Below the pieces are notes generated by a model. It made no database searches, had not been told where the DNA came from, and was given only the letters and a program-made list of their open reading frames with translations. This document shows, piece by piece, positions 6,149 to 15,710 of a stretch of DNA of 32,207 bases (position 1 is the stretch's first letter; every line of letters begins with the position of its first letter). The stretch lies in UHGV virus genome UHGV-1442421; one strand, written 5' to 3'. The stretch comes from a virus. A program made the position numbers and the translations under genes.

Positions 6149-7444
6149 TCACGCGGTCTGATTAGGCAGACCAACACCAATTGCCTCTGGCCGTACAGCA
6201 CATGCTGAATACCACACAGCAATACGGCACTTACCAGACAGAGTGTTGATATCACCCTGCGTTGCGAAGATGCCGTTAACACCAATACCAGGAATGCTGA
6301 AGGAAGACGTTTTCATGCCAGCAAACAGTTCATGGGTTACCGGGATCGGCTGAGACAGCAGACGGATTGAGTCATCAGCCCAGAACACGTTAGCGGTGGT
6401 TGTTGCCACGTTCAGAACGTTTACCGGAGTGGTATCAGCAAGAGAGGTGTTTACGTTAGCGTAAGCCTTCTCTTCTTTTGTCAGTGAAGCGTCATCAAGC
6501 GCAATCGGCTTCGGCGTGATTTCGATGTGAGTACCATCGATCACACGGGTGATTGAGAAAGTCGCATCATCAGTCAGCACGTTCTTCGCCATCTGAGACA
6601 GGAATTTCACACCAGTGAAGCTGATTTTGTCGCCGCGCTTAAACCCGGTGGTGGAGGATACGGTCACCGTTGCAACACGGTTGTCGACGTTCTCTTTGTT
6701 ACCATCGGTATCAAGGGTGTATGCCTGCGGCTTAAACTTCTGCGCACCAGAAACAGTTACACCAGTAGCGGTTGACTTGGTAACTGCCGGAAGTTTCGGT
6801 GAGCGAAGAATTTCATCAAAGCCAGCAATCTGACGCTGAATAGTACCGTTGCGATACGCTTCTTCAGGAACGCGCCCGAAGATGTCACCATCTACCAGGT
6901 TGCGGCCTGCTTTGCGGTAATCGTCAGGGTTCAGGAAGTAACTGATGCCCATATCGCGGTTTAGCTCACGGGAGAACATCAGGCGCTCTGCATCAGACAC
7001 AAAATCCCAGCCAGACAGGCCAGTAGATGGACCAATTGCGCGGGTATCGTGAACAACAAGCGAGCCCATTTCAGTTGCCTGTTTGGCAATCGCTGACTCA
7101 ATGTTATTCGCCAGTTTTTTGGCGGATGCCTGGATGCGGCGACGGTAAGAACGCTCATCACGCAGGTCATCTGCACGAAGCTCGAAGAAATCGTTATCCG
7201 GATCGCCCATGTTGCATTTCACGGAGAGTTCCAGAATCCCGGTTGCATTGCCAGTTAAATCCCAGCCAGTCTGGGTTGGCGCTTCCTGCTCAACAGGCAT
7301 CCACACGGTGTTGCTTGAACGTTGCATGGATTCTGCCGGAGGGGTGTATTTTGTCACTTTGGACGCCATTGGCGTCAGGTTCTGGACGGTTTCGATGATT
7401 TCATCCAGAGCATACGTGACCAGTTGACCTTCATTTAATGCCAT
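6149..7444 (-). CDS. Major capsid (coat) protein, P22 gp5-like (431 aa)
   Basis: Translation recognised as P22 coat (e.g. [21 protein letters not shown]-terminal GVGLPNQTA); gene order. Confidence 0.9.
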
Positions 7445-13269: not shown

Positions 13270-13728
13270 TCATCGAAGGCATTGCGTCCTGATGTATTCC
13301 TGCAGGTAGTTAACCTGCGCGGTTATCCTGTCGATTCCACTTCGGAGACGGTAATAATTGAGTTCAGCATCTGCTGTAAGTCTTGGGCTTTCTCCATCGC
13401 CCATGCTGCTGGCTCCGGTCGTTGACTTTGCACAGGTGGCGGCGACTTGCAGGCGCTTACGACCAGCAGAAACATCAGCACGGAGACTTTCGATAGTCGC
13501 GTTAGCATCAGCAAGCTCCTTTGTGTATCTGGCGTCAAGTTCTGCAACATCACGCTGACGCTGCTGCATGTCAGAGATGGTGGCGGTCGCCTGCTTCAGC
13601 TCACTGACTTTTTTATCACGCTGTTCTTTGTAGGCGATGGCATTATCACGGTAATGATTAACAGCCCATGACAGGCAAACGATGATGCAGATAACCAGAG
13701 CGGAGATAATCGCGGTTACTCTGCTCAT
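13270..13728 (-). CDS. Rz: Spanin inner-membrane subunit Rz (152 aa)
   Basis: N-terminal TM segment and coiled-coil; near-identical to lambda Rz as I recall it; start overlaps R stop. Confidence 0.85.
13323..13508 (-). CDS. Rz1: Spanin outer-membrane lipoprotein subunit Rz1, embedded in the Rz +1 frame (61 aa)
   Basis: Internal ATG at 13508 gives a signal peptide ending ...LLVVSAC, then a proline-rich region; embedded arrangement as in lambda. Confidence 0.65.
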
Positions 13729-14201
13729 ACCTCAATCTCTCTGACCGCTCCGCCAGCCTCTTTGAATTTTGCAATCAGGCTGTCAGCCTTATGCTCGAAC
13801 TGACCATAACCAGCGCCCGGCAGTGAAGCCCAGATATTGCTGCAACGGTCGATTGCCTGACGGATATCACCGCGATCAATCATCGGTAAAGCGCCACGCT
13901 CCTTAATCTGCTGCAATGCCACAGCGTCCTGGCTTTTCGGAGAGAAGTCTTTCAGGCCAAGTTGCTTACGGTAGGCATCCCACCAACGGGAAAGAAGCTG
14001 GTAACGTCCGGCTGCTGTTGATTTGAGTTTGGGGTTTAGCGTGACAAGTTTGCGAGGGTGATCGGAGTAATCAGTGAATAGCTCTCCCCCTACAATGACG
14101 TCATAACCATGATTTCTGGTTTTCTGCCGTCCGTTATCAGTTCCCTCTGACCACGCCAGCATATCAAGGAACGCCTTACGTTGATTATTGATTTCCACCA
14201 T
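13725..14201 (-). CDS. R: Endolysin (lambda R-type lytic transglycosylase, 158 aa)
   Basis: Translation recognised as lambda R ([24 protein letters not shown]...); same length. Confidence 0.9.
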
Positions 14202-14508
14202 CTTCTACTCCGGCTTTTTTAGCAGCGAAGCGTTTGATAAGCGAACCAATCGAGTCAGTACCGATGTAGCCGATAAACACGCTCGTTATATAAGCGAGAT
14301 TGCTACTTAGTCCGGCGAAGTCGAGAAGGTCACGAATGAACCAGGCGATAATGGCGCACATCGTTGCGTCGATTACTGTTTTTGTAAACGCACCGCCATT
14401 ATATCTGCCGCGAAGGTACGCCATTGCAAACGCAAGGATTGCCCCGATGCCTTGTTCCTTTGCCGCGAGAATGGCGGCTAACAGGTCATGTTTTTCTGGC
14501 ATCTTCAT
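14185..14508 (-). CDS. S: Holin (lambda S-type, 107 aa, dual-start MKM)
   Basis: Translation recognised as lambda S with the MKM dual-start motif and hydrophobic segments. Confidence 0.9.
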
Positions 14509-14754
14509 GTCTTACCCCCAATAAGGGGATTTGCTCTATTTAATTAGGAATAAGGTCGATTACTGATAGAACAAATCCAGGCTACTGTGTTTAGTAATCA
14601 GATTTGTTCGTGACCGATATGCACGGGCAAAAAGGCAGGAGGTTGTTAGCGCAACCTCTTGCCACCCGCTTTCACGAAGGTCATGTGTAGAAGGCCGCAG
14701 CGTAACTATCACCGATGAATTCATGATAGCCAGTGGCTACGGCTCAGTTTGGGT

Positions 14755-14880
14755 TGTGGCGGCCGGAATCGAACCGGCTTCCATCGGTGCGCTGCCGATT
14801 GCAGTACGCGCGGCGGGCAGCTACATGACTAGTATTTTCACTATCGCCTATCTGCTAGCTCGCCATTGAGCTTCACCACA
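14755..14880 (-). other. Degenerate tRNA-like element: canonical T-arm and 3' acceptor, candidate 5' acceptor and D-arm about 100 nt upstream, non-canonical anticodon loop
   Basis: Minus-strand GCCGG-TTCGATT-CCGGC (14762..14778) then CGCCACA; candidate partner TGTGGTG (14874..14880) and D-arm GCTC..GAGC; no encoded CCA. Confidence 0.3.
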
Positions 14881-14950
14881 ACGATAAGAGCACTCGGTGC
14901 ATTTAAGCCAAGCCCCATAAGGGAGAATGCTCTTACCTGTTGTGCAAACG

Positions 14951-14980
14951 CAAAAAGCCCCGAGCTATTAACTCAGGGCT
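14951..14980 (-). terminator. Intrinsic terminator, tR'-like, ending the short PR' leader transcript
   Basis: Minus-strand hairpin AGCCCTGAG / CTCGGGGCT (one G-U pair) followed by TTTTTG. Confidence 0.6.
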
Positions 14981-15015
14981 TTATTTAACGAGTGCATTTA
15001 TCCATCGTTGAGTCA

Positions 15016-15044
15016 AATTTACCCAACTTTATTCAAAAAGTCAA
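15016..15044 (-). promoter_or_regulatory. Late promoter PR' (-35 TTGACT, 17-bp spacer, -10 TAAATT) with overlapping Q-utilisation region
   Basis: Read on minus strand just downstream of Q; matches the lambda PR' motif as I recall it. Confidence 0.6.
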
Positions 15045-15086
15045 TATCATGCCGTTAATATGTTGCCATCCGTGGCAATCATGCTG

Positions 15087-15710
15087 CTAACGTGTGACCG
15101 CATTCAAAATATTGTCTGCGATTGACTCTTCCTTGTGGCATTGCACCACCAGAGCGTCATACAGCGGCTTAACAGTGCGTGACCAGGTGGGTTGGGTAAG
15201 GTTTGGGATTAGCATCGTTACAGCGCGATATGCGGCGCTTGCTGGCATTCTTGAATAGCCGACACCTTTGCATCTTCCGCACTCTTTCTCAACAACTCTC
15301 CCCCACTGCTCTGTTTTTGCTATATCAACCGCACGACCTGTACCGTGGCAATCTCTGCATCTTGCGCCTGGCGTCGCGGCACTACGGCAATAATCCGCAT
15401 AAGCGAATATTGCGAGCACTTGCAGTACCTTTGCCTTAGTATTTCCTTCGAGCTTTGCCACACCACGGTATTTCCCCGATACCTTGTGTGCAAATTGCAT
15501 CAGATAGTTGATAGCCTTTTGTTTGTCGTTCTGGCTGAGTTCATGCTTGCCGCAGAATGCAGCCATTCCGAATCCGGCTTGTGATTGCGCCATCCCCATA
15601 GCAGCCATCACATCAGTACCGGAAAGAGAGTCAGAAGCCGTAGCCCGTGGTGAGTCGCTCATCATCGGGCTTTTTGGCGAATGAAATTTAGCTACGCTTT
15701 CGAGTCTCAT
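15087..15710 (-). CDS. Q: Late antiterminator Q (lambda type, 207 aa)
   Basis: Translation recognised as lambda Q throughout (MRLESVAKFHSPKSPMMSDSPRATASD...). Confidence 0.9.
   Translation of the reverse strand: MRLESVAKFHSPKSPMMSDSPRATASDSLSGTDVMAAMGMAQSQAGFGMAAFCGKHELSQNDKQKAINYLMQFAHKVSGKYRGVAKLEGNTKAKVLQVLAIFAYADYCRSAATPGARCRDCHGTGRAVDIAKTEQWGRVVEKECGRCKGVGYSRMPASAAYRAVTMLIPNLTQPTWSRTVKPLYDALVVQCHKEESIADNILNAVTR

Follow-up and report, generated by a model that had tools for sequence, protein, structure and literature searches.

The stretch of DNA analysed here (the window: 32,207 nucleotides (nt) of virus genome UHGV-1442421) is part of a lambda-like prophage or phage, and the genes considered below lie on its minus strand in the order Q antiterminator gene, pR'-like promoter, intrinsic terminator tR', holin gene S, an endolysin-sized open reading frame (ORF) and Rz (Table 1). 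Between tR' and S, a placement that this gene order bears out, an initial annotation had pointed to a degenerate transfer RNA (tRNA)-like element and had offered three explanations for it: a decayed tRNA gene, a former tRNA-borne attachment (att) site, or a structured RNA. We find at this position a 130 nt tRNA-shaped core (the module), and a covariance model (R1) built from its relatives matches 14749-14885 over the full model length with 152.9 bits (E = 1.6e-37 in cmsearch). R1 gives no other significant match, and hence no second module copy, in the window (for example in an N leader). Of the three explanations only the structured RNA survives the comparisons described below, in which the fold is conserved and covarying.

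Table 1. Features of the Q-holin region of the window; sequences are written as DNA, 5' to 3' on the minus strand.
Feature	Position	Strand	Basis or remark
Q antiterminator gene (PF03589)	15710-15087	minus	Pfam
pR'-like promoter, TTGACT-17-TAAATT	15044-15016	minus	predicted; upstream of module
Intrinsic terminator tR'	14982-14954	minus	predicted; upstream of module
P0 hairpin domain of the same mobile unit	14886-14944	minus	conserved with core in lambdoid, Skate-like and Pantoea phages
P0: CACAAC, then AGGT (RNA: AGGU)	14944-14939 (CACAAC)	minus
P0 5' arm AAGAGCATT (RNA: AAGAGCAUU)	14934-14926	minus	variable tip follows
P0 3' arm AGTGCTCTT (RNA: AGUGCUCUU)	14894-14886	minus	3-nt linker ATC, then core
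Core tRNA-shaped module, 130 nt, outer stem 5' strand to 3' strand	14753-14882	minus	covariance model, comparative fold
Outer acceptor-like stem P1, 5' strand GTTGTGGTG	14874-14882	minus	pairs with 14753-14761, 9 base pairs
AA at the place of tRNA U8-N9	14873-14872	minus	precedes D arm
D arm GCTC / AATGGC / GAGC	14858-14871	minus	comparative alignment; invariant loop GG
Extra long arm, in anticodon-arm position	14801-14855	minus	Px, internal loop, H1 and apical loop
Stem Px, GCAG / CTGC	14855-14852 / 14804-14801	minus	covaries
Conserved internal loop, ATA / GCGCGTA	14851-14849 / 14811-14805	minus
Helix H1	14848-14840 / 14821-14812	minus	6 pairs with double changes
H1 apical loop, 18 nt	14839-14822	minus
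Self-complementary hexamer ACTAGT in H1 apical loop	14828-14833	minus	candidate kissing-loop dimerisation site
V hairpin ATCGG-CAGCGCA-CCGAT	14783-14799	minus	5 base pairs, 7-nt loop; candidate anticodon loop of the initial annotation
GGAA linker between V hairpin and T arm	14782-14779	minus
T arm GCCGG-TTCGATT-CCGGC	14762-14778	minus	comparative alignment; canonical T loop
Outer stem 3' strand CGCCACAAC	14753-14761	minus	CCA directly after (14752-14750)
Holin S gene (PF05106)	14508-14185	minus	Pfam
ORF of 158 amino acids, endolysin-sized, after holin S	13728-14201	minus	position
Rz gene (PF03245), after the endolysin-position ORF		minus	Pfam

The fold was derived by hand from an alignment (A2) of 49 distinct cores, and it agrees with an independent RNAalifold prediction. 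It runs as follows: a 9 base pair (bp) outer stem (-2 to 7 with 66 to 74), AA, a 4-bp D stem with a 6-nt loop, UA, the 4-bp stem Px, an asymmetric internal loop (AUA / GCGCGUA), an irregular helix H1 of ~10 bp with its 18-nt loop, one further nucleotide, the V hairpin (5 bp, 7-nt loop), GGAA, the T arm and the 3' strand of the outer stem. The window element has all the parts by which family members are recognised, in this order (9-bp stem, D arm, Px/H1 palindromic arm, CGCA V hairpin and T arm). The T arm and the D-arm-like GCTC-loop-GAGC of the initial annotation are thus both present, as is the pairing it proposed between a 3' acceptor CGCCACA (14761-14755) and TGTGGTG (14880-14874), although the stem is longer than these seven pairs. 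Its observations that the intervening segment is too long for a tRNA and that the loop CAGCGCA lacks U33 also stand: ~56 nt (Px plus H1) separate the D arm from the V hairpin, to give a total of 130 nt against 73-93 nt for tRNA, and an A is found in place of U33.

In the sequences compared, this predicted fold, with its outer stem, D and T arms, hairpin and long arm, is upheld by compensatory substitutions. The predicted pairs are kept in 94.5% of the cells of A2, versus 31-47% once the partners on the 3' side are displaced by 1-3 columns. Both sides change in 17 of the 40 pairs, and covariation scores 0.320, whereas column shuffles score 0.141 and none of 500 reaches the value of the real alignment. 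When the alignment is enlarged to 69 sequences, 94.6% of the cells are paired and compensations appear in the V stem too (AUCAG/CUGAU, AUAGG/CCUAU, AUUGG/CCAAU). The V hairpin first seemed invariant because the first search pattern included it; the variants came from a second scan anchored on the module's 5' half. The nine outer-stem pairs are formed in 97.7% of cells, with both-sided changes at four of them and 25 distinct strand combinations (pair -1:73, for example, is U-A, G-C or A-U). Px covaries as GCAG/CUGC, GGG/CCC, GAG/CUC, GUGU/ACAC and GCGA/UCGC, and the T stem as CC/GG, CU/AG, CA/UG, UA/UA, AU/AU and UU/AA, as well as GCAUG/CAUGC, around a T loop that is invariant except for Y59. 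The arms of the upstream hairpin P0 covary in the same manner (AAUGGCA/UGCCAUU, GAGAGUA/UACUCUC, AAAUCAA/UUGGUUU, AUCGCUUUG/CAAAGCGAU). G-U pairs are common, with U-G in 28 of the 69 sequences at pair 11:128 and G-U in 9 of the 69 at the first T-stem pair, and the constraint therefore acts on RNA.

Three other pairings were considered. Minimum free energy (MFE) folding of the single core sequence gives a cloverleaf but pairs GCAG with a nearer CUGC, which the comparative data show to be a mispairing. When the upstream region is included in the MFE calculation, CACAAC pairs with GUUGUG and the outer stem is destroyed; this was rejected as the main fold because members of the ATTGTGATG group make up for their change at -2 in the 3' strand and not in CACAAC, although the RNA may adopt it transiently or as an alternative. 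For the third pairing, a pseudoknot between the CGCA loop and GCGCG, the variants give no compensating changes.

Is the module then a known RNA? ARAGORN reports no tRNA or transfer-messenger RNA (tmRNA) gene in the whole window, and Rfam 15 gives no match in it at gathering thresholds, so neither of these two suggested checks returned a tRNA. The initial annotation had staked its proposal on such a hit and on conservation of the pairing in related phages: the existing models are silent, whereas the pairing is clearly conserved. The best permissive Rfam match is tmRNA (RF00023) with 20.2 bits against a threshold of 47; it covers the T arm and stem only and leaves 316 model positions skipped, and the module has no tag reading frame and no pseudoknots. 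Since the tRNA clan kept only this match, tRNA itself (RF00005, threshold 29) scored lower still. Permissive matches around tR' (isrJ, MicC, NsiR1, rimP) are terminator-driven noise. YrlA has no Rfam match at E <= 10 in 14400-15300, and the module's neighbours are Q and lysis genes, not an rsr-type context (rsr was not searched for window-wide); the prophage small RNAs (sRNAs) STnc100, AgvB, AsxR and Esr41 have no Rfam match in the window. Bacterial tRNA-Sec has an 8/5 acceptor/T stack, a 6-bp D stem with a 4-nt loop, a UCA anticodon and a long variable arm; it was rejected, as the module's stack is 9/5, its D stem is 4 bp with a 6-nt loop, it has no UCA loop and ARAGORN is negative. Protein coding on either strand is excluded because close relatives differ by 1-nt indels. 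Genuine tRNAs reach just 25-31 bits with R1, whereas module members score 132-162 bits. RefSeq annotation by PGAP of E. coli ETEC1720 has no feature in the Q-holin gap where R1 finds a copy, and we found no description of the module in the literature, exact sequence strings included, in a search whose coverage did not extend to subscription journals, so that an earlier description is possible.

In all copies the features by which enzymes recognise tRNA shape remain, and what a tRNA requires for decoding is missing. The former include the tRNA elbow nucleotides (D-loop GG, T-loop UUCGAYU and the G53-C61 pair), a 5-bp T stem with a UUCRANY loop, G18 and G19 in the D loop (AAUGGC), and a continuous, conserved stack of outer stem on T stem. 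Position 8, by contrast, is A and not U8, the 6-nt D loop lacks A21, and the V loop (consensus N-A-N-C-G-C-A) has A33 and C37 in place of U33 and R37. The outer stem is 9 bp and not 7, pairs -1:73 and -2:74 covary, and there is no free NCCA end. CCA stands directly after the stem in the window and after one bulged A in the copies in pL operons, is absent from Skate-like copies, and lies within 4 nt of the stem end in 57 of the 85 variants described below.

The apical loop of H1 contains a hexamer (alignment columns 55-60) that takes seven forms among the 85 distinct cores, every one of them self-complementary (one by way of G-U): ACUAGU, as in the window, in 42, UCUAGA in 19, UCGCGA in 15, GCUAGC and UCUGGA in 3 each, UCCGGA in 2 and ACCGGU in 1. 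A random hexamer has a 1/64 chance of being a palindrome, and interconverting these forms takes at least five double substitutions, each of which restores the palindrome. As the hexamer is unable to pair with itself inside one molecule and yet is palindromic throughout, it is most simply read as the point where two RNA molecules make a loop-loop contact, and judging from this pattern the RNA probably homodimerises through the palindromic loop. In the dimerisation initiation site of human immunodeficiency virus type 1 (HIV-1), too, a hairpin loop with flanking purines presents a 6-nt palindrome that varies in sequence yet stays self-complementary; the RNA and its biology are otherwise unrelated, and dimerisation of the module is deduced from sequence only.

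Copies were gathered by blastn and by scanning IMG/VR, the representative genomes of GTDB and metagenomes for sequence patterns, and were filtered with the covariance model, which gave 198 copies with 85 distinct sequences. Their sources are lambdoid prophages, virulent Salmonella phages, a Pantoea phage, a small number of plasmids, and metagenomes from gut or food. (In the scan of genome contigs the D-arm pattern was too generic and matched real tRNAs of many phyla; five loci there are true members.) By blastn a core of ~142 nt with sharp borders is present in 92 of 50,697 phage records, in unrelated settings; 175 of 5,426 complete E. coli genomes (~3%) and 3 of 72,556 plasmids also carry the module, and the hosts among GTDB records are Klebsiella, Enterobacter, Superficieibacter and an Enterobacteriaceae isolate. 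All members come from Enterobacterales phages, and their cores are 74-100% identical. HK75 and other lambda-like phages have the core between tR' and holin (97-99% identity), whereas in the virulent Salmonella siphophages Skate, seszw, Akira, vB_CECAV_048 and relatives it is 92-96% identical with flanks that are otherwise unrelated; lambdoid and Skate-like cores are 93-94% identical to each other in spite of these unrelated flanks. More distant copies are those of Salmonella phage gmqsjt-1 (81% identity), Pantoea phage PdC23 (78%) and the P22-like BIS08P22 (74%), the last just upstream of the N gene. In the Skate-type phages a genuine tRNA follows the module on the same strand after ~100 nt, with the neighbouring structural genes on the opposite strand, and in Skate two sigma-70-like promoters are predicted 55-100 nt upstream of the unit.

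The ~140-nt core, 74-99% identical among these copies, was thus found in at least six genomic contexts: the late leader after tR' (window, HK75); between nutL and N; downstream of N; between Q/HNH and STnc100/holin; in the portal-terminase gene interval, on the opposite strand; and, in virulent phages of the Skate and Akira kinds, in a unit of its own that runs from promoter to tRNA. The module travels as a unit between unrelated phages and genomic contexts. HNH or homing-endonuclease genes are annotated within ~1-1.5 kb of several copies in unrelated phages (L006:2590-3090, L003:2904-3395, L005:3464-4003), and a 161-amino-acid ORF ~600 nt upstream of the module in L016 was read as HNH by eye rather than by a domain scan; such genes may help the module to spread. 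Several records deserve mention on their own account. In L016, STnc100 (RF02076, 55.7 bits; 7060-7262, minus strand) lies directly downstream of the module copy and its terminator and upstream of the lysis genes. A 156-bit window-type copy in L143 (JAUVQU010000080.1), from a metagenome-assembled genome labelled 'Cellvibrionaceae', is probably on an enterobacterial phage contig misbinned into that assembly. One GenBank record labels the module's 3' 58 nt 'tRNA-Ser' (L001:2586-2643), another (H71, ON470589.1) has a 'polyubiquitin-A' coding sequence annotated under the module match, and in others (among them L007:2062-2223) hypothetical proteins are annotated on the strand opposite to the module.

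The core is mounted in two ways. Copies in pL operons lie between nutL and the gene for an N-like arginine-rich protein or just after N, and there leader and trailer sequences extend the outer stem at its base, past one bulged A, by a helix of 7-13 bp, for a total of 20-22 bp of which the distal part covaries. One such locus, L009, matches phage lambda exactly in nutL, the helix base and the N start region, and has the tRNA-shaped core (L009:7835-8075) where lambda (L127:455-665, minus strand) has the unrelated top of its N-leader hairpin. In lambda that hairpin is an RNase III site which modulates N translation and brings nutL near the N ribosome-binding site. It resembles the pL-operon copies in position, flanks and basal helix (GCUUUGG-GGUGUG... 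/ ...CACACC-A-CCAAAGC), but its interior is unrelated to the module, is not tRNA-like and gives no R1 match; the window copy differs further from it by lying in the late leader without a leader/trailer helix. Late-leader, lytic-phage and other copies, the window's included, have no such helix and are preceded instead by the P0 hairpin, whose arms differ between lineages yet stay complementary. The late leader of lambda itself shares this P0, followed by an outer stem GUUGUGCUG...CAGCACAAC that encloses a 65-nt interior that is not tRNA-like; R1 matches only the outer stem there (12.9 bits), and the small islands that pairwise alignment shows it to share with the window (GCGTAC, TA(A/G)GCGA) are not significant alone.

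A scan with the P0 5' arm returned at least 120 IMG/VR loci (L228-L329 among them). Among the loci listed, a scaffold made of the P0 hairpin plus the GUUGUGGUG...CACCACAAC stem stays constant while the interior differs: the tRNA-shaped core, the lambda 65-nt interior, a genuine tRNA-Arg(UCU), many singletons, and a large class with GAAUGCGCAGGCUGAUGCGC ... GCCGGAGAUCAGCACCGGC in which two hairpin loops are mutually complementary. This second, unannotated RNA class is found in L247, L250, L263, L213:4330-4465 (reverse), L279 and ~35 other listed loci, and consists of a 5' hairpin GCGCA-GGCUGA-UGCGC with a covarying stem, a variable middle, and a 3' hairpin GCCGG-AGAUCAGCA-CCGGC. Its loops are complementary as GCUGA/UCAGC, and as GUCGA/UCGAC in L279, which suggests, on this sequence pattern, an elbow built by loop-loop pairing; no Rfam family reached threshold in the loci of this class that were scanned. 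Scaffold units occur in tandem, with CACAAC direct repeats marking unit borders, and real tRNAs may follow the core within 5 nt. The remark in the initial annotation that some lambdoid phages carry tRNAs here is well founded, given the genuine tRNA-Arg in the same scaffold and the published account of the Q-holin interval as a hot spot for tRNA genes (PMC8022706). The interval is also a known hot spot for sRNA genes (STnc100, PasA/C/D, AgvB, AsxR; bioRxiv 10.64898/2026.05.13.724894).

The surroundings of the module in the window can be aligned with the lambda late leader across the promoter and terminator context. Only ~60 nt separate the pR'-like promoter from the terminator in the window, and ~200 nt do so in lambda, which has the same promoter motif. 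A terminator-like hairpin GAGGTTGCGCTAACAACCTC with a T-rich tail (14639-14658, minus strand) lies ~130 nt upstream of the holin start, and its sequence has a counterpart in the lambda late leader. Pfam (E <= 0.001) returns nothing for the 158-amino-acid ORF that takes the place of the endolysin gene; among the genes that RefSeq lists for the matching E. coli region is one for a 'glycoside hydrolase family 24 protein'.

What might such an RNA do? We regard as about evenly balanced the reading that the window element is an intact representative of a family, not described before, of tRNA-shaped noncoding RNA (ncRNA) modules in Enterobacterales phages, and that it is excised as a dimerising tRNA mimic; excision, dimerisation and function are what we infer from the sequences. 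Because no other promoter is predicted in the window, the module would be transcribed only when Q reads through tR', within the Q-antiterminated late transcript. Host enzymes that recognise the acceptor/T stack and elbow (RNase P, 3'-trimming exonucleases and possibly the CCA-adding enzyme) would then cut it out, with RNase III acting as well on the stem-mounted pL-operon copies, and it would accumulate as a stable, non-decoding tRNA mimic that displays the extra (H1) arm and pairs with a second molecule through the palindromic loop. Excision would as a side effect sever the promoter-proximal leader from the downstream message. The most plausible class of function would be that the mature RNA binds or titrates a host or phage factor that reads tRNA shape. 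Phage tRNAs are known to counter tRNA-targeting defences, P2 Old being among the relevant systems, and a decoy or sponge is attractive for that reason.

Several observations weigh against this picture of an excised, dimerising mimic. The covariation of -1:73 and -2:74 places the usual RNase P cut site inside a helix, a 6-bp loop-loop contact is weak by itself, and no candidate binding partner emerged from the analysis. The pair counts overstate the number of independent events since the sequences are kin (the number of distinct pair types is unaffected), and, given the narrow host range and scores that all fall at 132-162 bits, part of the covariation reflects few lineages. The lack of a predicted promoter of its own, at a site between tR' and S, leaves room for a structure that works in cis only, within the leader transcript and not as a free RNA: it could be a site of processing or insulation, serve as a 5' or 3' stabiliser or, where it lies in an N leader, bring nutL close to the N ribosome-binding site as the lambda hairpin does. 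Many copies do stand exactly at the site of the lambda N-leader hairpin and share its basal stem and flanks, and the outer stem and P0 scaffold also hold unrelated interiors. However, virulent-phage copies have their own promoters beside tRNAs, others lie downstream of N or on the opposite strand in structural genes, no downstream gene is common to all copies, and a processing or spacing device has no need of invariant loops (CGCA, GCGCGUA, AUA) and a kept palindrome; we consider a cis-only role doubtful, if a serious candidate. A role at the DNA level, with the inverted 9-mers (GTTGTGGTG...CACCACAAC) and the CACAAC repeats as recombination or cassette borders, or the whole as homing-associated DNA on which the RNA fold is incidental, would suit the flanking repeats, the tandem units, the interiors swapped between identical flanks and the HNH or homing-endonuclease genes within ~1 kb of several copies. 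Such a role could account for movement but not for the fold: the internal helices Px, H1, V and T covary too, and frequent G-U pairs in stems make sense only in RNA, so that we find it improbable.

The two explanations that tie the element to a past tRNA fare worse. The T arm, D arm and stem are tRNA-like, real tRNAs occupy this locus in other lambdoid phages (PMC8022706), one GenBank record names the 3' part a tRNA (above), and the family may well descend from a phage tRNA; but a decayed pseudogene, or a tRNA with an insertion or intron, is contradicted by the departures from tRNA rules, which recur in essentially all 85 variants with their helices, the extra arm among them, compensated. The high core identity between lambdoid and Skate-like phages, the rejection by ARAGORN and Rfam and the empty region that PGAP leaves at an E. 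coli copy speak against it as well, and a decayed tRNA is very improbable. Phage att sites often hold the 3' part of a tRNA gene, as does P22/L attP (PMC8022706), yet the element is a complete 5'-to-3' cloverleaf and no mere 3' fragment, lies in the Q-S leader and not beside int, and occurs in virulent phages, N leaders and structural-gene regions far from integrases; a relic of an att site is scarcely credible. The excised, dimerising mimic can also be set in a wider proposal, which we think unlikely in its full form: lambdoid phages would carry a tRNA-shaped RNA cassette system with a constant scaffold (CACAAC, P0 and the GUUGUGGUG...CACCACAAC stem) and interchangeable interiors, of which the window module would be the most tRNA-like, excised as a kissing-loop homodimer and serving, in trans, to decoy or soak up a factor that recognises tRNAs (e.g., a tRNA-targeting defence nuclease of the OLD, PARIS or retron type), while the lambda N-leader hairpin and late-leader segment would be derivatives in which the scaffold was retained and the tRNA-like interior lost or replaced.

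The module is an RNA that has been overlooked in heavily studied lambdoid phages (it is absent from Rfam 15, uncalled by ARAGORN and misannotated in several records), and it is also present in virulent Salmonella phages of a type considered for biocontrol. If it is a stable tRNA mimic, it would be a new player where phage tRNAs oppose tRNA-targeting defences, as well as a natural precedent for tRNA-scaffolded RNA expression. Its seat on the stem of the lambda N-leader hairpin would link tRNA-type processing to control of the antiterminator N in a testable manner, and the palindromic loop makes a simple, falsifiable prediction of RNA dimerisation.

Among known systems, the engineered 'tRNA scaffold' of Ponchon and Dardel reportedly carries a cargo arm in the anticodon position and is excised by the host as a nuclease-resistant RNA. 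The module likewise has a cargo-like arm in place of the anticodon arm of a tRNA shape; it differs in being natural, in its 9-bp stem and additional conserved hairpin, and in that its processing is only predicted. The tRNA-like domain of tmRNA (RF00023) is also a tRNA mimic with a replaced anticodon arm, and its T arm and stem match, but the module has a full D stem, no G3-U70 pair and neither tag frame nor pseudoknots. Within the same locus, tRNA genes are found at the start of the late operon in lambdoid and P22-like phages such as phage L and Sf6 (PMC8022706). These and the prophage tRNA-Arg(UCU) share with the module the Q/pR'-lysis position, the D and T arms and the elbow nucleotides, and some tRNA-Arg(UCU) genes share its upstream P0 scaffold; unlike them, the module is 130 nt long with an extra arm and a 9-bp stem, lacks U8, A21, U33 and R37, and cannot decode. 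The prophage sRNAs STnc100, PasA/C/D, AgvB and AsxR share the ncRNA hot spot, but are of the Hfq-type base-pairing kind, are not tRNA-shaped, and have no match in the window even at E <= 10. The bacterial Y RNA YrlA is reported to carry a tRNA-mimicking module (PMC4201824). Like the phage module it is non-decoding, ~100-140 nt long, mimics D and T arms and also occurs in phages. YrlA has its tRNA-like part in the interior, makes its Ro-binding stem from its 5' and 3' ends and is encoded beside rsr, whereas in the phage module the ends themselves form the acceptor-like stem.

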